DNA of 32,000 nucleotides from Gemmata obscuriglobus (lineage in GTDB: Bacteria; Planctomycetota; Planctomycetia; Gemmatales; Gemmataceae). The position numbers were made by a program, and so were the translations under genes. This document shows, in pieces, positions 12,619-31,075 of this stretch. A model generated the notes under the pieces. It was not told the DNA's origin. It worked only from the letters and a program-made list of their open reading frames with translations, and ran no database searches. The stretch is taken from contig NZ_CP042911.1 of NCBI RefSeq assembly GCF_008065095.1, forward strand, positions 3,810,001 through 3,842,000. The letters run 5' to 3'. Within the stretch, counting starts at the first letter, position 1, and each line of letters starts with the position of its first letter.

Positions 12619-13677
12619 ATGAGCAAGACACCCGAGATGGCCCAGAGCGATATGGACGCGATCCAGAAGCTCAAGACCGCGTTCGACAACATCAAGAAGC
12701 AGCTCACGCGGGTCATCGTCGGCCAGGACATGGTGATCGAGGAGCTGCTCATCGCGCTCTTCAGCAAGGGCCACTGCATGCTCGAGGGCGTGCCGGGCCT
12801 CGCGAAGACGCTCATGATCAGCACCCTGTCGCGGTGCCTGTCGCTGGAGTTCAGCCGCATCCAGTTCACCCCGGACCTGATGCCGGCGGACATCACCGGC
12901 ACGGACTTCATCGAGAAGAACCCGGCGACCGGCTCGTTCGAGCTGCTGTTCCGGCCCGGCCCGCTGTTCGCCAACATGGTGCTGGCCGACGAGATCAACC
13001 GCACCCCGCCCCGCACCCAGGCGGCGCTCCTCGAAGCGATGCAGGAGCGCCAGGTGTCCGTCGGCCGCGTGCGGCACAAGCTCGCCAACCCGTTCTTCGT
13101 GCTCGCGACCCAGAACCCGATCGAACAGGAAGGGACCTACCCGCTGCCCGAGGCGCAGCAGGACCGGTTCATGTTCAAGGTGTACGTGAAGTACCCGAAG
13201 TTCGAGGAGGAGTTCGAGATCGCCCGCCGCACCACCGGCGTGACCGCCGACGAGATCACCCCGGTGCTGACCGGCGAGCAGATCCAGGAGATCCAGCAGC
13301 TCGTCCGCAAGGTGCCGGTGACCGACCACGTCATCCACTACTGCCTCGCGCTGGTCCGGCAGACCCGCATCGGCGAGCCCGGCGTCCCGAAGTTCGTCAA
13401 GGACTGGCTGAGCTGGGGCGCGGGCCCCCGCGCCGTGCAGAACCTGATCCTGGCCGGCAAGGCCCGCGCGCTGCTGTACGGCCGCGGGCACGTCACGACC
13501 GAGGACATCAAGGAACTGGCGCTGCCGGTGCTCCGGCACCGCATCCTGACCAACTTCACCGCCGCCTCCGAGGGCATTAACACCGACATGGTGGTCAAGA
13601 AGCTCATCGAGGAGACGCCGGACAAGGAGGGCTCGCTGATCAACGACCCGCGGTTCCAGAAGATCTTCTCCTCGTGA
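12619..13677 (+). CDS. MoxR-family AAA+ ATPase
   Basis: Walker A GVPGLAKT and Walker B VLADEINR. Typical MoxR (AAA_3) blocks: [47 protein letters not shown] 12619 is preferred, with GTG 12610 as an alternative. Confidence 0.95.
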
Positions 13678-13679
13678 CC

Positions 13680-13775
13680 GGGGTTCCACGTTCCGGGTTC
13701 CACGTTCCAAGTTGGGAACCCGGATCGGCCCCTTGATGAGAAACTTGGAACCTGGAACTTGGAACCTGGAACTTC
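13680..13775 (+). repeat. Inverted pair of heptad/14-nt tandem repeats, (GTTCCNN)x4 ... (GGAACNN)x4, able to form a 34-position hairpin filling the moxR-DUF58 junction
   Basis: GGGTTCCACGTTCC occurs twice in tandem (13681-13708). AACTTGGAACCTGG occurs twice in tandem plus a partial copy (13742-13776). Pairing 13680-13713 with 13742-13775 gives 28 Watson-Crick pairs, 4 G-U pairs and 2 C-C mismatches. The loop is 13714-13741. The helix ends 2 nt before the DUF58 ATG at 13778. Confidence 0.75.
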
Positions 13776-13777
13776 CG

Positions 13778-14728
13778 ATGGCCAAGCGCCGCCAAGAGCC
13801 CGAGAACCCGCGCCGGTTCCTCGACCCCAAGGTGATCGCCCGCGTCTCGCAGCTCGACCTGCGGGCGCGGTACGCGGTCGAGGGGTTCATCTCCGGGATG
13901 CACCGGAGCCCCGTGTACGGGCAGAGCGTCCAGTTCGTCCAGCACCGCGAGTACATGCCCGGCGACGACCTGCGCCGCATCGACTGGAAGGTCTGGTCGC
14001 GGTCCGACAAGTTCGTCATCAAGCAGTACGAGGCGGAGACGAACCTCCGCTCCTACGTCGTCGTGGACGCCAGCGAGTCCATGCTCTATGGGCGGGACAA
14101 GCACCGCCGCGCCGGCACGCTGTACAAGTACGATTACGTGGCCACCGCCGCGGCGTGCCTGGCGTACCTGACGATCAAGCAGCAGGACTCGTGCGGGCTC
14201 GTCACGTTCGACTCGGACGTGCGCGAGGCGATCCCGCCGCGCAGCTCGCAGCGGCACATGGACGCCGTCACCAAGGCGCTCCACGTGTCGGACCCGCGCG
14301 AGAAGACCGACATGGTCAAGATCATGCGGCAGGTCGCGGAGGCCATGCCGGCCCGCGGGCTGGTGCTGGTCTTCTCCGACTTCCTGTGCGACCGCGCGGA
14401 GCTGTTCAAAGGGCTGGAGATGCTGCGGCACCGCCGGCACGACGTGATGGCGTTCCACATCCTCGACGACGACGAGCTGCTGTTCCCGTTCGGCGGGATG
14501 ACGAAGTTCGAGGGGCTGGAGGCGCAGCCCGACCTCCTGTGCGACCCGCGGGCGCTGCGGGACGGCTACCTGGAGGAGCTGGAGCTGTACCTGACCGAGG
14601 TGCGCCGCGGGTGCACCCGGATCGGCGTGGACTACACGCTGCTCCGCACCAGCGATTACATGGACGCGGTCTTGTCGAAGTTCCTGTTCGAGCGGATGTC
14701 CACCCGGGCCGCACCCGCGCGGCGCTGA
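13778..14728 (+). CDS. DUF58 family protein (vWA-like partner of MoxR)
   Basis: Hallmark DUF58 block HRSPVYGQSVQFVQHREYMPGDDLRRIDWKVWSRSDKFVIKQYEAE, followed by MIDAS-like VVVDASESM. The start is ATG 13778. The longer ORF from 13712 would translate the hairpin repeat. Confidence 0.92.
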   Translation: MAKRRQEPENPRRFLDPKVIARVSQLDLRARYAVEGFISGMHRSPVYGQSVQFVQHREYMPGDDLRRIDWKVWSRSDKFVIKQYEAETNLRSYVVVDASESMLYGRDKHRRAGTLYKYDYVATAAACLAYLTIKQQDSCGLVTFDSDVREAIPPRSSQRHMDAVTKALHVSDPREKTDMVKIMRQVAEAMPARGLVLVFSDFLCDRAELFKGLEMLRHRRHDVMAFHILDDDELLFPFGGMTKFEGLEAQPDLLCDPRALRDGYLEELELYLTEVRRGCTRIGVDYTLLRTSDYMDAVLSKFLFERMSTRAAPARR

Positions 14729-14821
14729 TGTCGAACTCGGAGTGCGGGCCGCGGCGGTCCTCGCCCCCGACCTCCTTCGGTTTTTCGTCCGCGCCCCGCG
14801 TTCCGAACTTCTGAGACTCCG

Positions 14822-17710
14822 ATGCTGTCGCTGTTCCTCAACCCGTGGACGTTCCTCGCCGGCGCGGCGCTGATCGCCGCGCCGATCGTCATCCACCTCA
14901 TCAACCGGATCCGGTTCCGGCGGGTGCAGTGGGCGGCGATGGAGTTCTTGCTGAAGGCGCAGAAGCGGATGCGCCGCCGCAAGATCCTCGAGCAGCTCCT
15001 GCTCCTGCTCCTGCGGTGCCTGATCGTGTTCCTCGTCGGGCTGCTGCTCGGGCGGTTCCTCGGGTGCAACTCCGGACAGGGCAAGGAGACCCGCGCGACG
15101 ACGCACCTCGTCATCCTCGACGACTCGCCCAGCATGGCCGACGTGTGGCGCGACGAGGGGGCGCAGACGGACGCGTTCGCCGTCGGCAAGCGGCTGATCC
15201 ACGAGAAGCTGATGCGGGCGGCGGGCGAGGCGGCCACCGCGCAGACGTTCCAGGTGATGCGTACTTCGGAACTCGGGAAGCCGTTCCCGGCGAAGCCCGA
15301 AGAGGCCAAGGTCAACGCCGCCGCGATCGAGGCGATGGAGGGGCACCTCGCCCAGTTCCAGGTGTCCACCGTCCGGCGGAGCCTGCGGGACGCCCTCGAC
15401 GCCGCGAAGGCCCACATGGCCACCGTGCCGGCGGGCGAGGCGAAGGTGATCCACGTCCTGTCGGACCTCCGCAACGTGGACTGGGCCGAGGACGGGCAGG
15501 CCGTCAACGACAAGCTCACCGAACTGAAAGACAGCGGCGCGACGGTCCACCTGATCGACGTGGCCCCCCCGGCGCGCAAGCCGGACCGCAAGTCGCCGCC
15601 GTTCACCGACAACGTGGCGATCGTGGAGGTGAAGCCCCGCAACCGCGTCGTGGCCGCTAACCAGCAGACCGAACTCGAGGTGAGGCTCAAGAACTACGGC
15701 AGCACCGACCTCAAGGAGGTTCGGGTGGAGTTTTACGTCAACGGCGAGATGCGCCGCGACATCTCGCTGGTGGTGCCGAGCCTGCCCGCGAACCAGGAGC
15801 GGGTGGCGACGTGTCAGGCGACGTTCACCCAGGTCGGCACCCGCGAGAAGCCGCTGGACCGGTTCAACCTCGTGACCGCGGTGCTCGCCGTCCCCGAGCC
15901 GGGCGGCCTCGCCATCGACAACGTCCGCCACGCCGTGGTCGAGGTGCGGCCGAAGCTCCAGGTGCTGGTGGTGGACGGCCGGGTGGACAAGCGCGACAAG
16001 CAGGACGGCGACAGCTTCTACCTGCGGCGCCTCTTCATCGACTCGTTCGGGGGCATCGACTGGGTCACCACCGAGCCGCCCAAACTGGACGGGCTGGACC
16101 TCCGCCCGTTCACGACGGTCTACCTGCTGAACGTACCGACCCTGTCGCCGGGGGCGGTGACGAACCTGGAGCAGTTCGTCTCGAACGGCGGCGGGGTGGG
16201 CGTGTTCCTCGGCCCCGACGTTAAGCCCGACGAGTACACGGCCCGGATGTACAAGGGCGGGGCCGGGTTCTTCCCGGTGCCGCTGCCGGCGAAGTTCACC
16301 GACGAGCTGAAGCCCGAGCAGAAGACCGCGCGGGAGCTGGCGTTCGGGAAGCGGGTGATCCTGCGCGACCCGGCGAACCGGCAGCACCCGGCGCTGTCCG
16401 CGATCTACACCAACGAGCGCGGCGGCACCGCCAAGGACAGCGAGGTGGAGCGGTACTTCCTGTTCACCAACATCGACTTCTACTGGCCGGTGGCCCGGCG
16501 CGGCGGCTGGCGCGAGGACAAGTTGGTGCGGGAGCTGTACTGCATGCCCAACGAGAAGCCGATCGCCGAGTTCGAGGAGCGGGCGCGGAACCTCGTGATC
16601 GAGGTGAAGAAGCGGTACAACGAGCCGAAGTTCGAGAAGGCCCGCAAGTACCTGGACCCGCTGCTGCGGCAGATCCAGGAGACGCCCGCGCAGGTGGGCA
16701 TCCCGCTGTCGGTGCTAGCCCGTTACCTCGACCAGCTCCTGTGCGACCAGATCAACGACGGCGACGAGAGCGAGCCGGTGCTGCGCGACTTCTGGAGCCA
16801 GCCGGAGCTGGCCGAGGTGCGCCCGCAGGCGACGGCCCTGCGCGACGAGGCCAAGTTCGGCGACCCGCTGTACATCGTGAAGGAGTTCGGGCGCGGGCGG
16901 GTGGCGGTGATGACCACCGACGCCGGCGGCACCCACAGCCCCGGGAACAAGCAGTGGACGGACTGGCCGTCGGGTAAGGGGAGCCCCGGCTGGGTCGTGG
17001 TCGTGAGCGAGATGCAGAAGTACCTGTCCGGCGGCGGCGCGGAAGGGAACCTGGCGCTGGGGGACCGGTTCTTCGCCGAGTTCGAGGCCACCCGGTACAA
17101 GCCGTTCGCGGCCCGGCACCTGCTGACCGCGGACGTGGCGAAGGCCGAGGGCGGGCGCGCCCTGCTCACCCTCAAGCCGCTGACCGATCAGGTGCTCGAT
17201 CAGCCCGCGAACCCGCCCGACGCCGCACCGGACGCGCCGCGCCGGCCGCTCCAACTCGCGTACGCCGACGCCCGGGTGCCGGGCGCCTACCTCTTCTCCC
17301 TGACGCGCCTGAAGGGCGACAAGGACCCGCCGGGCACCCCCGCCGAGCAGCCCGATTACGCGGCGGTGGCGTTCAACGTGGACGCGATGCGCGAGGCGGA
17401 CCTGCGGCGCGCGAACACCGACGACCTGGCGCAGTGGACCAACAAGGCCCCGATCCACAACACCGATGACCTCTCGTGGCTCGACGACTTCAAGCAGAAG
17501 CCGTCGGACATGTCGAGCCGGCGGTGGCTGTACTTCCTGCTCCTGCTGGTGCTGATCGCCGAGCAGGCGTGGGCCGTCCGGATGAGCTACCACACCAAGC
17601 CGGAAGACCTGGAGGCGCTGGCCCCCAGCGCCGCCGCCGCGTTCCAGCCGCGGTCCACCCCGCTCCCGACCGAGGCCGCCGCGGACGAACCGGTCGGCGC
17701 CGGCGCGTGA
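14822..17710 (+). CDS. BatA_N (N-terminal double-transmembrane) / vWA-domain membrane protein, 962 aa
   Basis: The N-terminus MLSLFLNPWTFLAGAALIAAPIVIHLINR plus a second TM (LLLLLLRCLIVFLVGLLLG) matches the aerotolerance-regulator BatA N-terminal architecture. A MIDAS-type HLVILDDSPSM is followed later by VLSDL. There is a C-terminal TM, RRWLYFLLLLVLIAEQAWAV. Confidence 0.88.
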   Translation: MLSLFLNPWTFLAGAALIAAPIVIHLINRIRFRRVQWAAMEFLLKAQKRMRRRKILEQLLLLLLRCLIVFLVGLLLGRFLGCNSGQGKETRATTHLVILDDSPSMADVWRDEGAQTDAFAVGKRLIHEKLMRAAGEAATAQTFQVMRTSELGKPFPAKPEEAKVNAAAIEAMEGHLAQFQVSTVRRSLRDALDAAKAHMATVPAGEAKVIHVLSDLRNVDWAEDGQAVNDKLTELKDSGATVHLIDVAPPARKPDRKSPPFTDNVAIVEVKPRNRVVAANQQTELEVRLKNYGSTDLKEVRVEFYVNGEMRRDISLVVPSLPANQERVATCQATFTQVGTREKPLDRFNLVTAVLAVPEPGGLAIDNVRHAVVEVRPKLQVLVVDGRVDKRDKQDGDSFYLRRLFIDSFGGIDWVTTEPPKLDGLDLRPFTTVYLLNVPTLSPGAVTNLEQFVSNGGGVGVFLGPDVKPDEYTARMYKGGAGFFPVPLPAKFTDELKPEQKTARELAFGKRVILRDPANRQHPALSAIYTNERGGTAKDSEVERYFLFTNIDFYWPVARRGGWREDKLVRELYCMPNEKPIAEFEERARNLVIEVKKRYNEPKFEKARKYLDPLLRQIQETPAQVGIPLSVLARYLDQLLCDQINDGDESEPVLRDFWSQPELAEVRPQATALRDEAKFGDPLYIVKEFGRGRVAVMTTDAGGTHSPGNKQWTDWPSGKGSPGWVVVVSEMQKYLSGGGAEGNLALGDRFFAEFEATRYKPFAARHLLTADVAKAEGGRALLTLKPLTDQVLDQPANPPDAAPDAPRRPLQLAYADARVPGAYLFSLTRLKGDKDPPGTPAEQPDYAAVAFNVDAMREADLRRANTDDLAQWTNKAPIHNTDDLSWLDDFKQKPSDMSSRRWLYFLLLLVLIAEQAWAVRMSYHTKPEDLEALAPSAAAAFQPRSTPLPTEAAADEPVGAGA

Positions 17711-17841
17711 CGTGACCGCGCCGGTCCGCCCTCGCTTGAGCGGTGAGGGCGACCGCACACAGGTAGGCAGGCATGCGGCCCCGACGCGCGGGCCGCGCCA
17801 GACCGCAGACGAACACAACGACCGCACCGGCGGGCAGGCAG

Positions 17842-20800
17842 ATGAACGAAACCGCGACGACCCGAAAGACCGAGTACGTGTTCCGCCGGCTGGTCGATTC
17901 GTTCGACCAGTTCGGGCAGGACCTGCTCTCCGCGCTCGCGCTGAACGCCTTTTCGCTGGCGCTCATCGGCGCGCTCGCGCTGGTCGTGCTCGCGCGCGTC
18001 GGGTACCGCCTGGCGTCCTCCGGTCGCCCGCTCAAGACCGGCGTCTCGGACGCGTCCGCGTTCGGGGTGGTGTGGGGCGTGGTCGGCTCCCTCGCCGTGT
18101 TCGCCGTCCTCGTCGAATCGATGGTGCTGCTCGCCGCGGCGCGTGGGGGCAGCACCGAGGTGCCGCTCTGGCGGCTGCTCGTCGCCGTTGCGGCGGTGCC
18201 GCTGGGCGCGCTGACCGCGCTGGCCGCCCTGTTCGCCGTGTTCAAAATCCTGTTCCCGCGGCGCACCGCGGCGTCCCCGCCGCGGGACCTGCCCGCCGTC
18301 GCGCTCGCCCTCCTGACGGGACTGCTCGTCGGCACGCTCGTCGTGTGGTGGGTGGTATCGTACTTCGGGGTGGACGCCCAGCAGGTGAAGGGCGAGGCCG
18401 ATTCGCTGGCCACCACCGGCGACCTGAACAAGGTCAAGTGGCTGGTACTCGTCGCCTTCGTGTTCGGCGCCGGCGCGCTGTTCACTCTGTTCACCTACAT
18501 CCTCGACATGCGGACCGCGCCGTGGTTCGTGGCGGTACCGCTCGCGCTGGTCCGCACCGCCGTGTACGGTGCCCTTTGCGTCCTGTTCCTGCTGCCGGCC
18601 GAGCAGACGTGGGAGGAGACGAACAAGCAGTCCCGGGTGGTGATCCTGCTCGACATCACCCCGAGCGTGACCGCCGTGAGCGACGAGGCCGGCGCGACCG
18701 CCAAGAAGCGGATCGACGTGCTCATCGAGTTCCTGACCGACGAGAAGGTCGCGTTCCTGAAGAACCTGCTCGACAAGAACCCGGTGGCGGTGTACGCGTT
18801 CGGCACCCGGCTCGACGAGGCCCCGGCGCTGATCCCGCGCGGCGCCCCGGTGTGGTCGAAGGGCGAGTGGGACTCGTTCCGCCGCTACGACTTCAAGCCG
18901 TTCGTACTGAAAGGGCTGTCGGACGCCGGCCAGGCGCAGCTCCGGCAGTCGTCGAAGTGGGGCGACGGGCCGGGAACCGCGGACTGGGCGCAGGAGTGGT
19001 TCGCGCGGCGCGGCGACGGCGAGCTGAAGGCGTTCTCGGGCCTGGAGTCCGACGCCGACGTGGAGGCGCTCCGCAAGAACCTCGACAAGCTCGACAAGCG
19101 CATCGACGTGGCCCGCACCATCACGCTCGGCACCAACGTGCCCGACGCCGTGACCGCGGCGGTCACCCGCGAGGCGTCCAACATGGTGCAGGGGATCGTC
19201 GTCCTGTCGGACGGGCGCAGCAACCTGGGCTCGGAGTCGAGTTACGCCGAGCTGCGGGACCGGGCGGGCAAAGAGAAAATCCCAGTGTTCACGGTCGTGG
19301 TCGGTGAGGACCGCGAGCGCGTCGCCATCAGCGTCACCGACATCCAGGCCCCCGACGCCGCGCCCATCGACGAGGCGTGGAAGTTCATCGTCGAGGCCGA
19401 CGGCCAGAACCTTGCGAACAAGGAGGTCGAGGTGCTGCTCGACCTGTACGCCCCGGGCAACACCCCCGTGCCGGGCCGGGACGTGAAGGACCTCACCCCG
19501 AACGAGACGTTCCGGCAGAAGCTCGTGTTCGCGCCCGGCGACCCGCCTCACGGGCAGGTCGAGTTCGTCATCGACCCGGCGAAGCTCCCCGAGAAGCTGA
19601 CCGAGCCGTCGAAGGACGCCGCGATCCCGAAGCCGGTGCTGAAGGAGGGCAAGTGGGCCGCGCGGGCGCGGATCGCGCGGGACCCGCAGGAAGCGTTCCC
19701 CGACCCGGAGCACTTCAGCACGGTGCGCGAGGTCAGCGTGCTCCGGCAGAAGCTCAAGATCCTGCTCGTCGCGGGGGCGCCGAGCCGCGAGTTCACGTTC
19801 CTCCGCACGCTGCTCGCCCGTGAAGTGCAGGAGCAGCGGGCCACGCTCACCACGTTCGTGCAGAACGAGGCCGGCACCACCGGGAAGCTCACCGCGGAGC
19901 AAGACGAGGTCGTGATCCGCCGGTTCCCGACCCACTTCGACCTGCGGTCCAACAAGGGCGTGGACCCGGCCGACCGGCCGTACAACATGAACGAGTACGA
20001 CGTGATGATCGCGTTCGACCCGGACTGGTCGGAGCTGTCGGCCCAGCAGGCCGAGGACCTGAGCCGGTGGGTGCGCGAGGGCGGCGGCGGGCTGATCTTC
20101 GTGGCCGGGCCGATCAACACGTTCCAGCTCGCCCGGGTGGAGGAGAACAGCAAGCACGACCCGCTGCTGAAGATCCTGCCGGTGCAGCCGGCGGACATCA
20201 TCGCCCAGCGGATCAAGCCGATCCCGAAGTCCCCGCGGCGCCTGTACCTGAACCCGAAGGCCATCATCGGCTCGGACCTGCTGCGGCTCGATGACCGGGT
20301 GCAGGACGACCCGATCGCGGGGTGGGAGCGGTTCTTCACCGACCGGGACCGCTACGTCAAGGACCCGGACGACCGCGTCGAGCTCTACCCGACCCGCGGG
20401 TTCTTCTCGTGCTACCCCCTCAAGCCGGACGTGGGCATCGGCGGGGTGAAGGCGGGCAGCGCGGTGCTCGCGGAGTTCGCGGACGTGGGCGACAACAACG
20501 AGGTCGTGAAACTCCCGTATGTGGTGACCAACAACCCGTCCGCGGCGTACCGCACCTGCTACATCGGTTCGGGCGAGTTCCACAAGATGCGGTCCTACGA
20601 GCCGGGCGAGGGCACCGGGCGGGAGTTCTTCGAGCGCGTCTGGATCAAGATGATCAAGTACATGGGCGGGAAGCGCAACGTGAAGGCGCCCCGCGGCCGC
20701 TTACTGGTGGGCAAAGAGGCTGTCGCCGGGGCGCCGCTGCGGGTCCAGGCCCGCGTGCTCAACGAGAGCGCCAAGCCCTATGAGGTCACCGCTCCGCCGC

Positions 20801-24800: not shown

Positions 24801-25534
24801 CGCAGACCGCCGTGAACGCGGTGGACAAGTCCCGCGACATCGTGAACACGGTGCTCCGCGAGTTCCGCCGCATCGCCCGCGAGTGCGAGGTGAACCGGGT
24901 CGTCGAGGTCACGACCAAGAACTACCAGGGGTATTGCTCACGGCTCGACACGATCCTGAGTGAAGACCCGAACGCATCGGTCGCGTTCCCCAAGACGCTC
25001 AACCTGCTCAACGTCGTCCAGGCGCCGCTGAACACCAGCCACTGGGCGCCACTCGTCGCGGTGACCGACGCCGAACAGTCCCTCTACGCACTGGAGCGCG
25101 AACTTCAGGCGATCCGCAAGGAGATCGGCGAGTCGCTGAGCAAGGAGCAGTTCATCAAGAACCTGCGGAAGCTCCGCGACGACCAGCTCCGGGTGGAAAA
25201 AGACATTGAGGCGATGAAGCGCCAGTTTGAAGTCGAGCAGGGGGCGAAGACGGCAAAGGTCAGCCCGGTCGGGGCCATCGCCTTGACGAAGGGCGAGACC
25301 AAGAAGATCCAGCACGCCATCGCCTGGCGGCAGTACAAGGAGGATGAGCTGATCGTGAAGCTGACCTCTTCCGACCCCGCGGTCGTGGTCCCCGCCCAGC
25401 TCACACTTACATATGAGAACAACCAGTTCCGGTTCGAGTACGAGGTGAAAGCCGGTTCCAAAGAAGGCACCTACAAGATCACCGTGACGCCGGGCGCGGG
25501 TGAGCCGGTCGAGGTCACCGTGATCGTGAAGTGA
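21884..25534 (+). CDS. 1216-aa membrane-anchored protein, uncharacterised (N-terminal TM bundle, long extracytoplasmic region, coiled-coil segment, C-terminal Ig-like module); possibly DUF4175-like
   Basis: Long ORF with high G/C at third positions. N-terminal hydrophobic helices: LLEGVLSACLFAVAWFALGLVLDFVFF, VFLVVVAFAVVTAIV, LWVSLPLAAVIGF, LWLLGFASVALVLGTVTVGV. Coiled-coil-like LRKLRDDQLRVEKDIEAMKRQFEVEQ. Beta-rich C-terminus ending TYKITVTPGAGEPVEVTVIVK. No catalytic motif recognised. Confidence 0.8.
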   Translation: MATAEGTRRTNVTPQHVARDPAVFNPLNQLRSTIRRYILLEGVLSACLFAVAWFALGLVLDFVFFKVTGVDWVLAGHWCARVFLVVVAFAVVTAIVEGGIAAAVFFGASLTLGLVEYLCVSAFGSGEWVEHAPLWFRLGTLLWVSLPLAAVIGFRLLRRLTKELSYETLALVLERRFPKLLGDRLITAVEMGNVNRMKEFGYSEEMLLATIVEARERVAQVPVSKVFNWRRLWLLGFASVALVLGTVTVGVASHALAARSVQPARAGWKLAHVSGIFLERNVGLMSTPWPRRAHIELVGFPETEATVSRDVATVPITARAYKWVVADPSVRAGWRPMKWGDVTPELIGRDVPAIDAAALLRTDDTSLPAQLNDWYVDAVEARLFVPADAPDDSLAPEALAYRNRLRESLGSGFAAAQDVFAALNAAADRPSMERTLRKLELTRPEARTDENGAPVVVQAPLKLQSYYRGLKFKGKGDLTPKQNNEYTGDVSGLKEDVYFYVEADDFQTPAQRIRLIPPPTLKRLYRIQEEPAYLHHAPATGAGFEDLRGRRQVMGEKNLSLTGERSVFVVPAGTQVTIHADPYTDDDGNVSDNDAVVSAVAVPVVGKFPGAVFGGDGKVTQTPVPLAVTPGKGWTVTFRNGWDDYDAPTRAALSVLKGIYPERDGRANVDFRLKDPVEFKVTWTNKYNVSTTRSILIQVTQDQPPVVEVGVDVIRKIGNTYLVTPKVRIPFNPDSFIKDDHGLSKVEYTFTYSAEDSDVVRGLRTKYALRSLLDLPTGAHFPTAMLPRLHADNFRTLDKNDDRLTASVFVSEWANQNGRLRRETPDRLAELLKTPSGDDVNQEAVRKVELKNADRDYFDLKELNDLGIIKILAPPGEAQQSYRMDLFVQATDNNADHDGGPRVTRGSEPIRLRVVSEGDLLLEISKEEEALGTRLDEALVQLAAAKRAYEFVRSSNGFKEETPEVVDTVKVRSQTAVNAVDKSRDIVNTVLREFRRIARECEVNRVVEVTTKNYQGYCSRLDTILSEDPNASVAFPKTLNLLNVVQAPLNTSHWAPLVAVTDAEQSLYALERELQAIRKEIGESLSKEQFIKNLRKLRDDQLRVEKDIEAMKRQFEVEQGAKTAKVSPVGAIALTKGETKKIQHAIAWRQYKEDELIVKLTSSDPAVVVPAQLTLTYENNQFRFEYEVKAGSKEGTYKITVTPGAGEPVEVTVIVK

Positions 25535-25566
25535 CAGCCGTACCGTTGGGGTTCCTGGTTCTGAAA

Positions 25567-25584
25567 CGGCACGGGCGCGTGCCG
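25567..25584 (+). terminator. Hairpin downstream of the 1216-aa gene (terminator-like, no U-tract)
   Basis: CGGCACG-GGCG-CGTGCCG, a 7-bp stem with a 4-nt loop, 33 nt after the TGA at 25532-25534. It is flanked by GTTCC/GTTCT pentamers at 25551, 25558 and 25591. Confidence 0.3.
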
Positions 25585-25909
25585 GCCGGTGTTCCTGCCA
25601 TCAGTACCATAGGGGCCGAGAGGTTAGCTGTGGGCTCGCATCGGGAGTGCCGTGCGAGGGGGCGGTCGCACGAAGGGGTGTAATGGGGTGAAAACGCCGC
25701 CACCGCTTCAACGCCGCCGGCACGTGATTCTCCGAACGAGTTCGGCCGCGAGTTACCGCCGCTCCGGGCGTCACTTTCGGGCGCTCGGTTCGGCGGTGTG
25801 CTTCAAAACTGAGTCGTGTCGGGGGCTATGCGGCCTTCTGAGATACCGGGTGTGATGGGGTAAGGCACTGCTGGTGGGTACGCTGACGGCACAGAAGTGG
25901 GGGGTACGA

Positions 25910-25953
25910 CTGACCGTTCGCTACCCATCCGCTGACGGTTCGCTCCCCATCCG
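25910..25953 (+). repeat. 22-nt tandem direct repeat (2 copies, 20/22 identical) in the non-coding gap
   Basis: CTGACCGTTCGCTACCCATCCG (25910-25931) and CTGACGGTTCGCTCCCCATCCG (25932-25953). Partial copies: CTGACGG at 25883-25889 and CTG at 25954. Confidence 0.6.
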
Positions 25954-26175
25954 CTGCCAGCGAATCGCCCGCATGACCCATAGATCCGGACCGACCTCGC
26001 GGGCAGAGATGGCTCAAGAGACATGGGAACCGTGGGACAATCGCGCGAAACCGCGGCCGCATGGCGGCAAATTGCCACTGCCGAATGGCGCCCAAATCTA
26101 TGGTCGCCAAGTTCTGCCGGTGGGAGGCGCCGGGCGATTAACCGGAACTTCGGGGCGTCCCGGTTTCTGCCCGCT

Positions 26176-26358
26176 TTGCGAGCGAGGTTGCGAGTGTTGG
26201 AGGCTGTCGGTGTTGAAGTTGCGAGCAGGAATTTGTTGGGCGCGTAACAAAGTGTAACATTGGACTGATCGCTCTCGGATTTTTCCCTGTTGCGTGTTGG
26301 CGGCCCTCTGGCGGGTCGTCAGAATGGCAGACGAATTGACGCCCGCGGCGCTTGCGAG
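26176..26358 (+). promoter_or_regulatory. Four copies of the heptamer TTGCGAG upstream of the 653-aa secreted-protein gene (candidate regulator-binding sites)
   Basis: TTGCGAG occurs at 26176-26182, 26188-26194, 26219-26225 and 26352-26358, all in the same orientation and all in non-coding sequence upstream of ATG 26387. Confidence 0.3.
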
Positions 26359-26386
26359 CACCGCACCCCACGAGGGAGGCCGACCC

Positions 26387-28348
26387 ATGATCCGCCGGTT
26401 GCCGTACCTGTCGCTGTCGCTGGCGGCGATGGTCGGCCTGTTCGCTCTCACGTCCGCGCTCACCGCCCAGCCCACGAGTCCCACCGGGGCCGGCACCAAG
26501 CGGACCCAGGAAGAGAACCTGAAGTTCTACAAGAACTTTTCTGAACAGATGTTGCGTCTCGCCCAGAAGTGGGAGAAGAGCGACAGCGTCGAGGACCGGG
26601 ACCGCGCCAAGACGCTTCGCGCGGCGCTGAAGATCGCGGAGGAGAAGGGCGTCGAGAAGCTGTTCAAGGAACTGATCGAAGGGCTGAACAACAAGAACCT
26701 CGGCGGGAGCGATTTCGAAACGCTGCTCGGGAAAGACAAGAAACTCATTGATGTCCTCACCGAGATCCTCCAACTCCTCGAAACCGAGGACGACGCGGCC
26801 CAGACTCGCGAGAAAATCAAGAAGCTGGAAGCCGCCATCAAGGCCATCAACGAGTTGAAGCGCCGGCAGCAGAACATCCTGGGCCGGACGTTCAACCCGA
26901 AGAGCGACGCGGACCGGCTGGCCAAGGACCAGAGCGACCTGAAGAAGGACACCGCCGCCGTGGCCAAGGCGCTGGACCCCAACGCCAAGCCCGGCGCACC
27001 GAACGCCGGCGCGAAGGAAGACCCGAAGTCGGAGAGCAAGTCCGAGCCCAAGCCCGGCGAAAACACGGCCGAGAACAAGCCCGACACCCAGGAAAACAAG
27101 TCGGAGAACAAGGGCGAGCCGATGGGCGGGATGCCGACGGAGCCGAAGGGCGCTGCCGAAGGCAAACCGATGGGCGGGATGCCGATGGACGGCATGTCGG
27201 GCGGTGAGAAGTCGGCCCCGAAGGACGGGATGGGCGGCGAGCCGAAGGGGGGCGAGCCCAAGCCGATGGGCGCCGCCAATCCGATGAACCCGATGGCCGG
27301 TGGCGAACCCAAGCCGATGGGCGGCGAGGGCAAGCCGCAGGGCGCCGGCAAGGGCGAGAGCAAGCCGTCGGCGGGGCAGCAGGGCGGCGATAGCAAGCCG
27401 ATGGGCGGCGAGGGGATGAGCCCGCCGATGGGCGGCATGGGGCAGCCCAGCCCGGGCGGTTCAAAGGGCGGCGGTCAGCCCCAACCGGGCGGCAGCCCGT
27501 CCCCGCCGCAGGGCGGCAAGAAGGACCCGGCCGCGGAGAGCGTGGAGCAGGCCGTTCCGAGCCAGCAGGAAGCCGAAAACAACATCAAGAAGAACGAGAA
27601 CAAGGACGCGACCAAGAACCAGGACGACGCCATCAAGAAGCTGGAAGCCGCCATCAAAGAACTGGAGGCCCGCCTCAAACAGCTCCGCGAAAAGGAGCTG
27701 GCCAAGCTGCTGTCGAACCTGGAACAGCGCGTCTCCGCGATGATCAAGCTCCAGACCGAGGTGCGCGAGGCCACCAAGAACATTCACGGCACCGTAAAGG
27801 CGCTCGGCGGCAAGGCGGCCGTGGCCGAGATTCAGAAGAGCCAGACGGAAGCCGAGAACGAGAACAAGATCATCGTCATCGCCGATTCCACCCTGAAACT
27901 GATGGAAGGGGAGGGGAGCGCGGTCGTGTTCGCCGGCGTGCTGAAAGAAGTTCGGGGTGACATGGAGGCGATCCAGCGGCGCCTCAACGAGACCCGCGTC
28001 GGCGAGGACACGCAGCAGATCGAACAGGACGTGATCGACCAGCTCAAGCTCATGCAGGAGGCGCTGAAGAAGGCCAAGCAGGATCTGGAGAACAAGCCGA
28101 GCGAGCCGAAACCCAACGACCCGAACGCGAACAAGCCGAACAACAAGCTGCTCGAACTCCTCGCGGAACTGAAGCTGATCAAGTCGCTTCAGGAGCAGGT
28201 GAACAAGCGGACCGTCATGCACAGCAAGGCGGACCCCGGCGAGCAAGCCAAGGACCCGTTGATCCAGACGGAGCTGCAACAGCTCGCCGCCCGGCAAAAG
28301 GTGCTCCAGGACATGCTCCACAAGATCGCGACCGAGGCCAACCAGTAA
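26387..28348 (+). CDS. Secreted coiled-coil protein with central Met/Gly/Pro/Lys-rich low-complexity repeat region, 653 aa
   Basis: ATG 26387 is preceded by a strong SD, GAGGGAGG (26372-26379). Signal peptide MIRRLPYLSLSLAAMVGLFALTSALTAQP. Heptad-like helical segments lie on both sides (KIKKLEAAIKAINELKRRQQ; AIKKLEAAIKELEARLKQLREKELAKL). The central repeats are of the (E/K)PMGG type. Confidence 0.85.
   Translation: MIRRLPYLSLSLAAMVGLFALTSALTAQPTSPTGAGTKRTQEENLKFYKNFSEQMLRLAQKWEKSDSVEDRDRAKTLRAALKIAEEKGVEKLFKELIEGLNNKNLGGSDFETLLGKDKKLIDVLTEILQLLETEDDAAQTREKIKKLEAAIKAINELKRRQQNILGRTFNPKSDADRLAKDQSDLKKDTAAVAKALDPNAKPGAPNAGAKEDPKSESKSEPKPGENTAENKPDTQENKSENKGEPMGGMPTEPKGAAEGKPMGGMPMDGMSGGEKSAPKDGMGGEPKGGEPKPMGAANPMNPMAGGEPKPMGGEGKPQGAGKGESKPSAGQQGGDSKPMGGEGMSPPMGGMGQPSPGGSKGGGQPQPGGSPSPPQGGKKDPAAESVEQAVPSQQEAENNIKKNENKDATKNQDDAIKKLEAAIKELEARLKQLREKELAKLLSNLEQRVSAMIKLQTEVREATKNIHGTVKALGGKAAVAEIQKSQTEAENENKIIVIADSTLKLMEGEGSAVVFAGVLKEVRGDMEAIQRRLNETRVGEDTQQIEQDVIDQLKLMQEALKKAKQDLENKPSEPKPNDPNANKPNNKLLELLAELKLIKSLQEQVNKRTVMHSKADPGEQAKDPLIQTELQQLAARQKVLQDMLHKIATEANQ
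27113..27442 (+). repeat. In-frame low-complexity repeat core encoding (E/K)PMGG-type units
   Basis: The encoded 110 residues contain 15 Met, five PMGG units and one PMGA unit (GEPMGGMPTEP, GKPMGGMPMDGMSGG, EPKPMGAANPMNPMAGG, EPKPMGGEG, SKPMGGEGMSPPMGGMG). The DNA unit AAGCCGATGGGCGG recurs. The wider Lys/Pro/Gly/Glu-rich region spans about 26978-27529. Confidence 0.8.
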
Positions 28349-28538: not shown

Positions 28539-29648
28539 GTGAAGATCCGCAAGCTGTTCGCCGCCGCCGCGGTCTCCGCGGGTTTGGCCGGAACCGTGAC
28601 CCCTGCGTTCGCCGCCGAGCCGAGCGCGAAGCCGACGTTCGGGTTCAGCACGTTGAAGGCCACCCCTGCCGAGGCCGCGAAGGCGCGGGCCGAGGCGTGG
28701 CTCAAGGCGGCCGGCAAGTTCGACGAGAAGGCGTTCAACGCCGTTTGGGAGAACGACAAGCGTACCGTTCTCGACCGCACCGCCGACTCCCTCGCGCTGG
28801 GCAACGCCGAGGTGCAACAGCTCCTCGCCGACGCCCGCAAGAGCGACGCCCCGGCCCCGGCCGCGGTCCCCGCGATTCTGAAGGACGAAAAGCAGGACCC
28901 CTTCTTCCGCGCCAACGTCTCGCTGGCGTTCGCGAAAGCGGCCGCGGGCAAGAAGGTGTACGAAGAGGCCATCGACGCGCTGAAGACCGTGAACCCGGAG
29001 GTCGCGGTCGATCCGGCCAGCTTCTACTTCTTCAAGGCCGTCGCGCACCACGCGACCGCGATGAAGACCGGTGACAAGGAGCAGGCGACCTCCGCCATCG
29101 TCAAGTTGCTCGACGAAGTGGCCGACGCCCCGGACCGCTACAAGATCCTCGCCACGCTCATGTTCTTCGACATGCAGAACTGGGCCAGCGACCCGAAGGA
29201 CCTGTCGAACATCGAGCGGCTGATGGACAACAGCGGCCGCCGGCTCGACCTGGCCCGCGGCGGCGAGAAGACCCAGGACATCCAAAAGAAGATCGTGTTC
29301 CGCCTGGACGAGGTCATCAAGGAACTCGAAGCCAAGGCCAAGGGCGACGGCCAGTGCAAGGGCGGCAACTGCCCGGGCGGCGGCGACAAGCCGGGCAGCA
29401 AGCCCGGCAACGGCAACAACCTGAACCCCAACCAGCCGGCCCCGGACAGCACGATCATGGGCGGCAGCGGCCAGGGCAAGGTGAACGAGCAGGAGCTGCG
29501 CAAGATCGCCGAGCAGTGGGGCAGCCTGCCGGCCGAGAAGCGCGCGAAAGTGGTGCAGGAGATCACCCGCGACCTCCCCGCCAAGTTCGAACCGATGATC
29601 AAGAACTACTTCGAGTCGCTGGACAAGGTCCACGGCTACAAGAAGTAA
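28539..29648 (+). CDS. Secreted protein of unknown function, 369 aa (helical N-terminal part, Gly/Pro/Asn-rich linker with CxxxxC, conserved-looking C-terminal module)
   Basis: GTG 28539 is preceded by AAGGAG (28526-28531). Signal peptide MKIRKLFAAAAVSAGLAGTVTPAFA-AEP. Linker QCKGGNCPGGGDKPGSKPGNGNNLNPNQPAP. C-terminal block EQWGSLPAEKRAKVVQEITRDLPAKFEPMIKNYFESL. Confidence 0.85.
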   Translation: MKIRKLFAAAAVSAGLAGTVTPAFAAEPSAKPTFGFSTLKATPAEAAKARAEAWLKAAGKFDEKAFNAVWENDKRTVLDRTADSLALGNAEVQQLLADARKSDAPAPAAVPAILKDEKQDPFFRANVSLAFAKAAAGKKVYEEAIDALKTVNPEVAVDPASFYFFKAVAHHATAMKTGDKEQATSAIVKLLDEVADAPDRYKILATLMFFDMQNWASDPKDLSNIERLMDNSGRRLDLARGGEKTQDIQKKIVFRLDEVIKELEAKAKGDGQCKGGNCPGGGDKPGSKPGNGNNLNPNQPAPDSTIMGGSGQGKVNEQELRKIAEQWGSLPAEKRAKVVQEITRDLPAKFEPMIKNYFESLDKVHGYKK

Positions 29649-29660
29649 GACCGACTTCCC

Positions 29661-29684
29661 GCGCCGGCCCCACCGGGCCGGCGC
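29661..29684 (+). terminator. Perfect 10-bp all-G/C hairpin after the 369-aa gene stop (terminator-like, no U-tract)
   Basis: GCGCCGGCCC-CACC-GGGCCGGCGC, starting 13 nt after the TAA at 29646-29648. Confidence 0.45.
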
Positions 29685-29746
29685 CAGGAGGGCTCAAATC
29701 CATGCGATCCGGTATGATCCCCGCGCCAGTTTGATACCCGATACGA

Positions 29747-29777
29747 GGGCGGTGGGTGCTTCTGGCGCCCACCGCCC
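29747..29777 (+). promoter_or_regulatory. Second strong hairpin in the same spacer, 39 nt upstream of the NPCBM-protein start (5'-UTR structure or second terminator)
   Basis: GGGCGGTGGG pairs with CCCACCGCCC (10 bp). The stem can extend by a G-U pair and GC/GC around the loop TTCTG. CTTTCCGTT follows. Confidence 0.35.
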
Positions 29778-29815
29778 CTTTCCGTTCAAGTCCGCACCCG
29801 CGAGGAGCACCTTTG

Positions 29816-31075
29816 ATGCGCACCCCGACCCGTATCCCCGCGCTGCTGCTGGGCCTCGTGGGTCTTGCAACAGCGGGCACGCCAGCCGGTGCGGACGACC
29901 TCACCACCGCGGGCGGAAAGAAGCTTAGCGGTAAGCTCGTCGCGGTCGAGGCCGACAACATCACCTTCGCGGTCGGCGACAGTAAGGCGGTGATCCCCGT
30001 TCGCGATGTCGTCGTCATCGACCTCGGGAACAAAGTGGGGCTGCTCCCGAAAGACGCCAGCACCTTCTCGGAAATCGAACTGACCGACGGTTCGACGTTC
30101 CGCGTCGCCAAGTTCGCGCTCAAAGACAAGGCGTTCGCGGTCGATCAGTTCCCGGCCCCGGCGGGTGTCGGGTTGCCGAAATTGGATATCCCGGTTTCGG
30201 CCGTGTTCTCGGCGATGAAGCGGGCCGACGACCAGAAGGTGCGGGACAACTGGAAGAAGATGCTGGGCACCCGGGGCAAACGGGACCTTTACGTGATCGC
30301 CCAGGAGACCGGGTTCACGTTCATCCAGGGCACAGTGCTCGGCGGCGGTGCGGACGAGAAGGGGCGCCCGGTCGTGAACTTCGAGAAGGAGGCCGGGGGT
30401 AAGGAAGACCTTTTGCTCACCCGGTCGGCGGGGCTCGTGTTCCACCAGCCGCAGCCCGCCTCGATACCCGCGACACTGTGCAAAGTGACCGACGTGTTCG
30501 GTCACTCGCTCACCGCGGCCAACATCGCCCTCACGCCGGACGGCGTCACGGTGACCACCGTGGCAGGCGTGAAGGTGACGTACCCCTCGACGGCCGCGCT
30601 GGTGCGGTTCGACTACGCGCTCGGGAACGTTGCGTATTTGTCGGACCTCGACCCGCAGCTCGAGGTGCCCGAACTCGCGCCGGAAGAAAAGGGCAAGCGC
30701 CTCAACCAGCCCGCGGCGTACCTTAAAGATCGCTCCTTCGCCAACGAGGCGATCAAGCTCGACAACCAGACCTTCCCGAAGGGTGTCGTGCTGGCGCCGG
30801 ACACGGTTGCCACGTTCAACCTCAACGGCGACTACTCGCAGTTCAAGGCGACGGCCGGCATCGACGAGAACGGGGCGGACGCCTCCGCCGCCGCGCGGGT
30901 CACGATCGAGGGCGACGGGCAGGTGCTCTTTTCCGAACTGCTGAAGCGAAAAGATAAGCCGAAGGGGTTGGTTTTGGCCGTGAAGGGCGTCAAACAGTTG
31001 CGGGTCATTGTCGAGACCGACACGCCGCTGAACGGGAACTACGTCACGCTCGCGGACGCCCGTGTTCAGAAGTAA
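29816..31075 (+). CDS. Secreted NPCBM/NEW2-domain protein, 419 aa
   Basis: ATG 29816 is preceded by GAGGAG (29802-29807). Signal peptide MRTPTRIPALLLGLVGLATAGTPAGA. The C-terminal ~150 aa resemble the NPCBM carbohydrate-binding module (FPKGVVLAPDTVATFNLNGDYSQFKATAGIDENG ... VTIEGDGQVLFSELL ... VKGVKQLRVIVETD ... NGNYVTLADARV). The N-terminal half consists of repeated small beta-rich units. Confidence 0.85.
   Translation: MRTPTRIPALLLGLVGLATAGTPAGADDLTTAGGKKLSGKLVAVEADNITFAVGDSKAVIPVRDVVVIDLGNKVGLLPKDASTFSEIELTDGSTFRVAKFALKDKAFAVDQFPAPAGVGLPKLDIPVSAVFSAMKRADDQKVRDNWKKMLGTRGKRDLYVIAQETGFTFIQGTVLGGGADEKGRPVVNFEKEAGGKEDLLLTRSAGLVFHQPQPASIPATLCKVTDVFGHSLTAANIALTPDGVTVTTVAGVKVTYPSTAALVRFDYALGNVAYLSDLDPQLEVPELAPEEKGKRLNQPAAYLKDRSFANEAIKLDNQTFPKGVVLAPDTVATFNLNGDYSQFKATAGIDENGADASAAARVTIEGDGQVLFSELLKRKDKPKGLVLAVKGVKQLRVIVETDTPLNGNYVTLADARVQK

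Follow-up and report, generated by a model that had tools for sequence, protein, structure and literature searches.

Does the gene cluster that begins with a MoxR ATPase gene in the planctomycete Gemmata obscuriglobus form a single cell-envelope system, or is it an operon of known type with a second, independent set of genes behind it? The cluster lies in a stretch of 32,000 nt of contig NZ_CP042911.1 (RefSeq assembly GCF_008065095.1, positions 3,810,001 to 3,842,000; G+C content about 67%), which is called the window here and whose numbering is used throughout. Operons of MoxR, DUF58, and BatA genes occur in many phyla and since 1999 have been connected with aerotolerance, resistance to stress, virulence, and the integrity of the envelope. 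We regard the cluster, with moderate confidence, as a planctomycete form of the MRP-type MoxR or "Bat-like" envelope operon with at least ten co-directional genes, a degree of confidence that applies to the explanation developed below as a whole.

The cluster is a much larger version of a known but unexplained operon type, and it is of moderate interest through its fixed extra partners. The MoxR-DUF58-BatA core was known; new are the planctomycete partners that accompany it, comprising a third membrane protein, two large families without a Pfam model, a putative glycan-binding protein, and HtrA proteases. No paper describing the planctomycete cluster, or giving a function to it, was found in the literature that could be searched, which agrees with a preliminary description of the window, made from its letters alone, in which the system had no assigned function. 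At the protein level the whole region is 95-99% identical to the corresponding locus of Gemmata algarum JC673 (locus L003), and the third membrane protein, of 1216 aa, shares 97% identity with a Gemmata sp. JC717 hypothetical protein. Scans with Pfam and NCBIfam profiles, together with the sequence itself, recovered every gene, motif, and domain of the preliminary description in its place.

The MoxR core and its membrane proteins

The first gene of the cluster encodes a MoxR AAA+ ATPase of 352 aa (12619-13677, + strand; the open reading frame (ORF) starts at 12610), which matches Pfam AAA_3 (5.3e-61) and AAA_lid_2 (1.2e-14) and also bpMoxR (9.3e-11). Against the RavA model NF010054 it scores only 21.7 bits, the cutoff being 681. 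The DUF58 gene (13775-14728, + strand, 317 aa; ORF open from 13712) lies directly downstream, starting 35-98 nt after the MoxR gene, and its product, a protein with a vWA-like fold, matches Pfam DUF58 (4.7e-47) and VWA_2 (4.6e-9) and carries the DxSxS motif VVVDASESM. No transmembrane (TM) segment is predicted in either protein, and both are taken as cytoplasmic. In the Snider and Houry classes, as given in PMC12067865, an MRP-type MoxR operon consists of MoxR, DUF58, and a vWA membrane protein; the window has a MoxR of this type, an adjoining DUF58 gene, and vWA membrane proteins downstream. Essential-gene tables for P. limnophila contain five AAA_3 and five DUF58 genes, and the entries shown are all non-essential, with the orthologue of this locus not told apart among them.

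Two large membrane proteins follow, of 962 aa (14822-17710, + strand) and 1313 aa (17839-21780, + strand; ORF from 17773). Since the window sequences alone do not carry the vWA call for these proteins, families of orthologues were collected and scanned. The 962-aa protein itself matches BatA_N (4.6e-14) and TIGR02226 (3.8e-15; 55.9 bits against a cutoff of 23.05) and contains the motif ILDDSPSM; by itself it gives no Pfam VWA match. Across its family (n=42) BatA_N is found in 42/42, CARDB in 26, and VWA_2 in eight (best 2.6e-4), with GATase1-like matches to DUF4159 in six members, to ThuA in six, and to GATase1_like in three, and the alignment holds D100, D101, S104, and D215 invariant. TM helices are predicted at residues 6-24, 59-77, and 903-921. 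The resulting plan is a two-TM hairpin with a basic loop, a vWA domain with its metal ion-dependent adhesion site (MIDAS), a CARDB immunoglobulin (Ig)-like domain, a GATase1-like (DUF4159/ThuA-like) domain, and a C-terminal TM helix. By the positive-inside rule and by analogy with the topology of Borrelia BB0173, the vWA domain is predicted to be periplasmic and the hairpin loop cytoplasmic.

The 1313-aa protein carries LLDITPS and LSDGRSN, and its window copy matches Pfam VWA at only 0.0057. Matches to VWA appear in 22/29 orthologues (best 8.9e-6), the family profile finds the collagen VI vWA domain in the PDB at 1.6e-4 and the BatB structure 3ibs only weakly (E 0.4), and D294, S298, and D480, at the DxTxS and SDG positions, are invariant. 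In Gemmata this protein has additional N- and C-terminal TM helices; in other orders the two-TM hairpin stands alone. The 962-aa and 1313-aa proteins are paralogous: their families align over 281 columns (hhalign 89%, E 2e-6), in a region that takes in the second half of the vWA domain and the Ig-like and GATase1-like domains. The preliminary description had read three consecutive vWA/MIDAS proteins behind MoxR. This reading holds because of the family-level VWA matches, the invariant residues, and the paralogy, and the PDB match upholds it as well; the hidden Markov model searches proposed there for the large proteins gave BatA_N directly and vWA at the family level.

The third membrane protein, of 1216 aa (21884-25534, + strand), belongs to no Pfam family: neither Pfam nor NCBIfam gives a match for it, and Pfam scans of 21 family members were empty as well. 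About five N-terminal TM helices are predicted, and the shorter homologues of other orders have a three-TM plan. Between TM helices lies a helical segment, ALVLERRFPxLGDRLITAVE, whose motif columns are invariant in the family and which is predicted to be cytoplasmic because of its basic charge and the three-TM plan just named. From 73 sequences AlphaFold2 gave a model with a mean predicted local distance difference test score (pLDDT) of 86.7. In this model the exported part appears as an array of Ig/macroglobulin-like beta-sandwiches, a helical bundle of ~200 aa, and a last C-terminal beta-sandwich. Foldseek returned generic macroglobulin and Ig arrays (alpha-2-macroglobulin and C3, E 4e-6; E. 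coli alpha-2-macroglobulin, 3.6e-6), with low TM-scores. The family is related to the ~800-aa counterparts of other orders at 99.4% (hhalign, E 8e-22).

Trailing genes and the right end of the cluster

A non-coding gap of ~850 nt (25535-26386) lies between the 1216-aa gene and the gene for a coiled-coil protein. It is moderately conserved in comparison with the corresponding gap of G. algarum (L003:13649-14640), and the final ~150 nt, which hold GTAACA-N4-GTAACA before the coiled-coil gene, are almost identical. Because this last part of the gap is so nearly identical between two Gemmata strains, an internal promoter or a 5' leader is possible there. A 127-aa ORF in the gap is without a Pfam match and, among the loci compared, has a counterpart in G. 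algarum only (64%). The G. algarum gap also contains an extra insertion of ~140 nt that resembles a miniature mobile element and has a long inverted repeat (GGCACAGACATTCCGGTCTGTGC ... GCACAGACCGGAATGTCTGCGCC).

The coiled-coil protein (26387-28348, + strand; 653 aa, or 684 aa if the ORF is read from 26294) would be secreted or anchored by its N terminus and consists of a signal-peptide-like N terminus, a helical N-terminal domain, a coiled coil, a variable low-complexity stretch rich in K, G, P, and E(M), and a conserved C-terminal helical domain of ~250 aa. The family, aligned from 38 orthologues with Planctomycetales included, has no Pfam family, and tblastn with the window protein against five distant loci (L081-L085, see below) gave 1e-12 to 1e-23. 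The part encoded at 26990-27560 (residues ~270-390) is made of the methionine-rich repeats GGMP, MGG, and PMGG, in place of which the homologues of other lineages have K/G/E/D/Q-rich repeats. Metal binding by the methionine-rich repeats of the Gemmata protein is possible, but the repeats are not conserved.

The next gene encodes a secreted protein of 369 aa with a WGSLP..YFESL module (28539-29648, + strand). Behind a signal-peptide-like N terminus its AlphaFold2 model (pLDDT 80.9) suggests a TPR-like helical repeat (40-270), a disordered G/P-rich linker (272-314, scoring below 50), and a C-terminal three-helix module with the pattern WGxLP..ER..Y..I..YF..L; the linker carries the motif C272-x4-C277-P. 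Foldseek found only weak TPR and 14-3-3 matches (E 0.1 or worse) and no significant structural neighbour. An exhaustive search collected 2632 clusters of this family (50% identity, E<=1e-3), 347 of them at E<=1e-30. The family has no Pfam model, a Pfam TPR match occurs in just one of 15 members, and an SH3 domain was not found in it. Its named members come from Gemmataceae, Planctomycetaceae, Rubinisphaera, Lacunimicrobium, Pirellulales, and one metagenome-assembled genome (MAG) labelled Deltaproteobacteria. With the coiled-coil family it has a single short motif in common (E 0.0037, probability 9%). The third secreted protein, of 419 aa (29816-31075, + strand; ORF from 29756), carries a C-terminal NPCBM/NEW2 domain, a putative carbohydrate-binding domain (4e-18).

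The preliminary description closed the cluster at 31075, a boundary that has to be moved, as the cluster continues into HtrA protease genes. The + strand frame that follows opens with a signal-peptide-like start at 31195 (alternative start 31171), carries HtrA signatures including GNSGGP, and runs off the window beyond 32000, so that the 5' part of an HtrA/DegP-family protease gene is seen. Compared with the PDB, this frame matches HtrA at 6.3e-39 and DegP/DegQ at ~1e-27. Having no stop codon within the window, the gene does not appear in ORF lists. Behind its NPCBM gene G. algarum has genes for a 606-aa Trypsin_2 protein (2.5e-29) and a 395-aa protein with Trypsin_2 and PDZ domains, and in the distant loci there are three Trypsin_2/PDZ genes at this place in L082-L085 and L087 and two in L081. 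With the HtrA-like gene counted as the eleventh, the + strand from 5772 holds eleven genes, all co-directional, and the earlier count of nine exported or membrane-embedded products among eleven is true.

A minus-strand ORF at 31114-31944 was considered as a conserved convergent gene and rejected as a shadow of the HtrA gene. Its tblastn "homologues" in other orders map onto + strand trypsin-like genes; the high-GC antisense frame of an HtrA gene yields such spurious "conserved" matches.

Conservation of gene order

Gene order was examined in three independent samples. In the first, eighty genome loci anchored on the 1216-aa protein and nearly all from Gemmataceae, each gene was counted where it stood in the expected order and orientation among the loci long enough to show it. 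MoxR lies directly upstream of DUF58 in 46/48, DUF58 is syntenic in 47/49, the BatA-like gene in 53/55, and the second vWA gene in 72/72. The trailing genes are present in 53/66 (coiled-coil), 43/55 (369-aa), 42/49 (NPCBM), and 38/46 (HtrA). The order persists where the 1216-aa anchor is only 27-30% identical, and for this reason we take it as more than chance.

For the second sample the anchors were distant 369-aa homologues (25-32% identity) in eight loci (L081-L088). Seven of these loci, including Rubinisphaera margarita, Lacunimicrobium album, a Pirellulales MAG, and Planctomycetaceae MAGs, contain in order a BatA protein (750-810 aa), proteins of ~800-950, 800-940, and 550-700 aa, the 369-like gene, and a further gene behind it. 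DUF58 is found upstream in five of the seven, which is every stretch that reaches that far, and NPCBM follows the 369-like gene in six (L081-L085 and L087); in the Pirellulales MAG (L086) the next gene is cut by the contig end. By tblastn the BatA-like and vWA proteins match between orders at 1e-27 to 1e-51, and the BatA of L085, cut at the end of that locus, at 9e-12. Several junctions in Rubinisphaera overlap by 4 nt between stop and start. In L085, a Planctomycetaceae MAG, small genes are inserted at 1191-2149, 4706-5576, 11238-11890, and 14878-15361 with the order unchanged; they include DUF433/DUF5615 and BrnT toxin-antitoxin-type genes, and an HNH endonuclease gene stands further on (16759-17184). 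The eighth locus (L088:1-9823) has another context, in which the 369-aa homologue lies beside ~19 small genes without a Pfam match, all but three on the opposite strand. These surroundings look like a prophage or a similar insertion.

Among eighty metagenome contigs anchored on BatA-like proteins, the third sample, MoxR lies directly upstream of DUF58 in 50/63 loci, and the coiled-coil, 369-like, and NPCBM genes were present in 20/27, 18/25, and 17/23 of the loci with room. Some of the exceptions are probably paralogous BatA loci. On four metagenome contigs (L101, L107, L108, and L124, at ~600-6000) the region immediately upstream of MoxR holds, on the other strand, a second BatA-like/vWA-like gene pair, so some lineages have two divergent copies of the membrane-protein pair.

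Gene order is thus conserved over at least three orders of Planctomycetes (Gemmatales, Planctomycetales-type, and Pirellulales). The series from MoxR to HtrA comes back in the majority of about 50 Gemmataceae genomes, in seven of the eight loci of other Planctomycetia, and on about 20 contigs from metagenomes. The linkage of the trailing secreted genes to the core, which the preliminary description had made a test of its proposal, is seen in the Gemmataceae, Planctomycetales-type, Pirellulales, and metagenome loci alike. Its remark that the module is greatly enlarged also stands: the three membrane proteins measure 962, 1313, and 1216 aa here against ~750-810, 800-950, and 800-940 aa in other orders, and because those counterparts are all ~750-950 aa long, only Gemmataceae show the large size.

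A copy of the cluster is also found at 551-13523 of the 81-kb plasmid pPL62-3 of Planctomyces sp. SH-PL62 (NZ_CP011276.1, L170). The RefSeq names in it are DUF58, BatA domain, VWA domain-containing protein (equated with the 1313-aa protein by position, not by sequence comparison), three hypothetical proteins, and an NPCBM protein of 912 aa. A plasmid can thus carry the system, which may pass from strain to strain.

Comparison with known systems

The first four genes of the cluster are the counterpart of an alphaproteobacterial four-gene MoxR-DUF58-DUF4159 operon. Alphaproteobacteria were represented by one Sinorhizobium meliloti locus (L089), which has, in the same order, a MoxR gene (47% identity), a DUF58 gene, a gene for a BatA_N-like 937-aa "DUF4159 domain-containing protein", and a fourth gene for a membrane protein. 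The third S. meliloti protein, with TIGR02226/BatA_N and a GATase1-like domain, aligns with the 962-aa family at an hhalign E of 0.001, and the GATase1-like region of the fourth aligns with the 1313-aa family at 92% (E 7e-7). The S. meliloti operon differs in that it ends after these four genes; no 1216-like, coiled-coil, TPR-like, NPCBM, or HtrA genes are found there. Across the searches the genes after the fourth were found only in planctomycete records, apart from the Deltaproteobacteria-labelled MAG for the 369-aa family. We assume that the S. meliloti locus is the orthologue of the operon RL3499-RL3502 of Rhizobium leguminosarum. Mutants of that operon are reported to have envelope-integrity defects (cited in PMC5700661).

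The Bat loci of Bacteroides fragilis, Borrelia (BB0170-BB0176), and Leptospira (batA-D) share with the window MoxR, DUF58, two vWA membrane proteins, and the BatA_N hairpin, and in them, too, TPR-type and larger exported proteins follow BatA and BatB. The features of BatA are present in the 962-aa family, with the BatA_N hairpin in 42/42 members and a sub-threshold vWA domain that has an invariant DxS/TxS...D pattern, and the 1313-aa family supplies the second vWA membrane protein, as BatB does. With the TPR proteins BatC/BatE (BatE with SH3) the 369-aa protein may be compared, which models as TPR-like, gives no Pfam TPR or SH3 match above threshold, and has weak Foldseek matches. The BatD family gave no Pfam match in the window proteins, in 21 members of the 1216-aa family, in 38 of the coiled-coil family, or in ten proteins from other orders. 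Compared with the Bat proteins, the vWA proteins here are 2-4 times as long and contain CARDB and GATase1-like domains in addition. HtrA and NPCBM genes are not known from the Bat operon. The BatA-like BB0173 of Borrelia was shown experimentally to be an inner-membrane protein with three TM helices and a periplasmic vWA domain (PMC5700661). The predicted plan of the 962-aa protein is the same.

The mycobacterial ripA-ripB/moxR1 locus also places an MRP-type MoxR, DUF58, and a vWA membrane protein beside genes for secreted envelope-remodelling enzymes. It differs in that the enzymes are NlpC/P60 wall hydrolases rather than HtrA proteases, the single vWA protein is small, and giant membrane proteins are lacking. 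In mycobacteria MoxR1 is reported to assist export of the wall hydrolase RipA (PMC12067865). The RavA-ViaA system of E. coli likewise pairs a MoxR-family AAA+ ATPase with a vWA partner (PMC3893208), but it belongs to another MoxR subfamily and is a soluble two-gene system without DUF58 and without membrane or secreted partners.

Relation to DUF4175 proteins

DUF4175/TIGR02302 proteins resemble the products of the 1216-aa and coiled-coil genes in plan, beginning with TM helices and continuing with a long exported region, a stretch of low complexity, and a helical part at the C terminus; here that plan would be spread over two genes. The preliminary description took alphaproteobacteria to have a comparable cluster that ends in such a protein. 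The one locus read does not bear this out: in S. meliloti a GATase1-like membrane protein, related to the 1313-aa protein, follows the BatA_N/DUF4159 gene, and no DUF4175 gene is present within the stretch read. Nor did tblastn of BatA_N and of the conserved parts of the 1216-aa protein against plasmids bring up a DUF4175 protein.

It was further proposed that a DUF4175-like role is split between the 1216-aa and the coiled-coil protein. No window protein matches DUF4175 or TIGR02302, and none of 21 members of the 1216-aa family matches DUF4175. What speaks for the proposal comes from relatives of the two proteins. The 1216-like protein of L084 matches positions 250-352 of the 825 of the DUF4175 model (E 2.2e-4; 19.9 bits, cutoff 27.3), and by the hhalign alignment the match falls on the most conserved periplasmic motif, DQPPV.E....IR..G....T.KA..P. 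The coiled-coil homologue of L087 matches model positions 698-804 (E 3.6e-4; 19.1 bits, same cutoff) with its C-terminal helical domain, and 2/38 Gemmataceae coiled-coil proteins also match DUF4175, at E 0.002 or worse. These sub-threshold matches are collinear and fall, in adjacent genes, on the same family specified in advance, and for this reason the idea that each of the two genes stands for one half of a DUF4175 protein may be called weakly supported. Compared directly by hhalign, the 1216-aa and coiled-coil families show no relation.

In-frame TGA codons in orthologues of the 369-aa protein

In nine of 42 Gemmataceae orthologues of the 369-aa protein (L027, L030, L034, L047, L062, L065, L066, L067, and L073) the gene contains an internal stop. 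All ten internal stops are TGA, never TAA or TAG (for example at L030:16096, L034:16241, and L047:16547), and the conserved C-terminal module stays in frame behind them. In eight of these loci the TGA stands at the position of C272, the first cysteine of G-Q-C-K-G-G-N-C-P; both cysteine positions are TGA in L067, and only that of C277 in L073. This is a classic mark of a selenocysteine (Sec)/Cys pair and suggests one in an exported protein, the window copy having cysteine. A GC-rich hairpin with a GGUC(A) loop, a candidate selenocysteine insertion sequence, lies ~25 nt downstream of the TGA in 6/9. The folding energy of the Sec forms equals that of the Cys forms, and RNAalifold gave no convincing consensus. 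Because the motif falls in the predicted disordered linker and is missing from most of the aligned distant relatives, we do not regard this site as central to the system. A split pair of NCBI proteins (P0393/P0394) was examined as a further Sec site and ruled out as an N-terminal frameshift.

Proposed function and alternatives

The explanation that we favor, with somewhat more belief than doubt, takes the cluster as one unit built round MoxR and DUF58, with a large periplasmic scaffold, secreted partners, and HtrA proteases, which serves envelope maintenance under stress. This belief attaches mainly to a Bat-like envelope system that works as one unit and far less to the single steps. From topology rules and the example of BB0173, the bulk of the three large proteins would be periplasmic, with just short, highly conserved segments in the cytoplasm. 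A MoxR hexamer with DUF58 as adaptor would engage these segments, its targets being the basic hairpin loop of BatA_N and, in the 1216-aa protein, the ALVLERRFP..LGDRLITAVE segment, and ATP hydrolysis would assemble or conformationally switch the periplasmic vWA, Ig, and GATase1-like parts. The periplasmic MIDAS sites would then bind the coiled-coil and TPR-like secreted proteins in a metal-dependent manner, the NPCBM protein would link the whole to a layer of glycan, either the cell wall or a surface polysaccharide, and the HtrA proteases would process, clear, or recycle components. The net role would be envelope integrity under stress, in agreement with reported phenotypes of the four-gene relative in Rhizobium and of Bat loci. 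The large MoxR-remodelled cell-envelope assembly of the preliminary description is likewise an inference.

Several points weigh against this explanation. The action of a cytoplasmic ATPase on periplasmic domains is speculation, and the Bat family is itself without an established mechanism (PMC3557215 and PMC5700661). The vWA call for the 962-aa protein is drawn from sub-threshold matches in 8/42 orthologues and from conserved motif residues, and the signal peptides of the coiled-coil, 369-aa, and NPCBM proteins were assigned by eye from inspection and hydropathy. In the window the 850-nt gap parts the core from the trailing genes, and ~15-20% of the Gemmataceae loci lack trailing genes beside the core, so that the two halves can be uncoupled.

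The last two points bear on the possibility, which we consider fairly unlikely, that two separate units are neighbours here: a Bat-like MoxR-DUF58-BatA-vWA-1216 operon, and an independent periplasmic module of coiled-coil, TPR-like, NPCBM, and HtrA proteins with its own promoter and an unrelated task, for example general periplasmic protein quality control. The gap, with its strongly conserved ~150 nt directly before the coiled-coil gene, would suit such an arrangement, as would the 7-13 Gemmataceae loci that have room for trailing genes after the 1216-aa gene and lack them, the 369-aa homologue found in a different context (L088), and the general housekeeping nature of HtrA proteases. What argues for one unit instead is that the genes stay adjacent and in order even where proteins of different lineages share only 25-35% identity, that in Rubinisphaera and related loci the junctions across the supposed boundary are 5-60 nt long or overlapping, and that the order survives toxin-antitoxin insertions in L085. 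The sub-threshold DUF4175 matches, too, suggest that the 1216-like and coiled-coil proteins are halves of one protein elsewhere.

Other readings keep the cluster together and give it another purpose. MoxR relatives serve the maturation of metal centres (NorQ/NorD, CbbQ/CbbO, and CoxD/CoxE), and the cluster might likewise insert metal into periplasmic proteins or maintain the redox state of their thiols or selenols, with the methionine-rich and Cys/Sec motifs as the sites. The GGMP/MGG-rich repeats of the Gemmata coiled-coil protein, the CxxxxCP motif of the 369-aa protein with its TGA in place of a cysteine in nine orthologues, and a PQQ_2 propeller protein encoded upstream could all be read in this sense, and PMC5700661 discusses the hypothesis that Bat supplies reducing power to the periplasm. 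We nevertheless think cofactor or redox maturation quite unlikely: the methionine-rich repeats are not kept in the other aligned coiled-coil proteins, the cysteine motif sits in a predicted disordered linker and is mostly missing from distant homologues, the conserved core has no oxidoreductase or metalloenzyme gene, and the propeller, which is lineage-specific, scores as BamB-like PQQ_2 and not as a PQQ dehydrogenase. An apparatus for polysaccharide capture or adhesion at the cell surface, in which Ig-like arrays and the NPCBM protein reach outside and MoxR powers assembly, seems improbable to the same degree. The putative carbohydrate-binding module, the likeness of the long beta-sandwich arrays to adhesin and macroglobulin stalks, and the 912-aa NPCBM protein of the plasmid copy would fit it. 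Predicted TM helices, however, anchor the three large proteins in the cytoplasmic membrane, and the conserved set contains neither an outer-membrane or secretion-system gene nor a consistently linked glycoside hydrolase.

A MoxR-vWA "ternary" biological-conflict or anti-phage system, as described by Kaur et al. 2020, is disfavoured and very improbable. The bpMoxR match at 9.3e-11 and the beta-propeller protein upstream recall such systems, which are reported from multicellular or complex bacteria (PMC7159879). Yet the AAA_3 match is stronger than that to bpMoxR by 50 orders of magnitude, effector and NTPase sensor domains are absent, nine of the eleven products are exported or membrane-bound, and the propeller gene does not stand upstream of MoxR in most loci that are not of the Gemmatales type. 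A PADLOC scan gave no system match, just a marginal generic AAA match, and on this negative scan the defence reading was dropped.

A bolder form of the envelope explanation, which we hold to be unlikely, is a Planctomycetes-specific trans-envelope machine in which a MoxR-DUF58 motor would switch periplasmic MIDAS domains "inside-out", in the manner of integrins, to build or release a glycan-tethered beta-sandwich stalk and coiled-coil scaffold with its dedicated HtrA proteases. If it were true, the DUF4175 proteins of Proteobacteria would be the fused remnant of two of its parts, and the TPR-like subunit would be an exported selenoprotein in some lineages, a concrete handle on the idea of Bat as a periplasmic redox system. 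Short of that, the conserved partners of the envelope unit that we favor are concrete candidates for substrates or interactors of MoxR/Bat. Planctopirus and Gemmata are now genetically tractable, and since they can be manipulated the MoxR/Bat question becomes testable. The cluster further points, with weak support, to where DUF4175 proteins may have originated, and it yields a candidate exported-selenoprotein family. Should the function prove to be routine envelope housekeeping, the value will lie mainly in the better annotation of several thousand "hypothetical" proteins.

Upstream genes and regulatory signals

Two further co-directional genes precede MoxR. The first encodes a 1681-aa exported protein (5772-10817, + strand) with TPR and a PQQ_2 (BamB-like) beta-propeller (PQQ_2 1.8e-16), which scores 16.8 bits against the PQQ dehydrogenase model TIGR03075 (cutoff 480). 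The second encodes a 412-aa exported alpha/alpha-toroid protein (11221-12459, + strand) resembling prenyltransferases and squalene cyclases (SQHop_cyclase_C 3.6e-9). Of the Gemmataceae loci with room, 43/46 have the 412-aa gene upstream of MoxR, whereas the propeller gene mostly falls beyond the stretch fetched; the pair was found in 11 of the 36-46 metagenome loci with room. Given this difference the two genes are treated as lineage-specific companions outside the phylum-wide core.

Further to the left, the window carries at 21-2915 genes for a histidine kinase and a sigma-54-dependent response regulator (1413-2915), and in one metagenome contig (L152:3560-6000) similar response regulator and histidine kinase genes lie a few kb upstream of its MoxR. 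Because of this regulator, sigma-54 promoters were searched for (TGGCAC-N5-TTGC, <=2 mismatches). With 14 sites against 31 expected, sigma-54 control was dropped, and the single good intergenic site, upstream of the 369-aa gene, was set aside as it is kept in only 4/41 orthologous loci. Scans of the window for sigma-70 promoters and terminators gave nothing above shuffled controls, the 850-nt gap contains no sigma-70-like consensus, and no Rfam family was found in the window or in the gap. On the minus strand at 3542-5890, between the regulator and the propeller gene, lie genes for a radical SAM/SPASM-domain protein (468-aa ORF) and a PP2C-type phosphatase.

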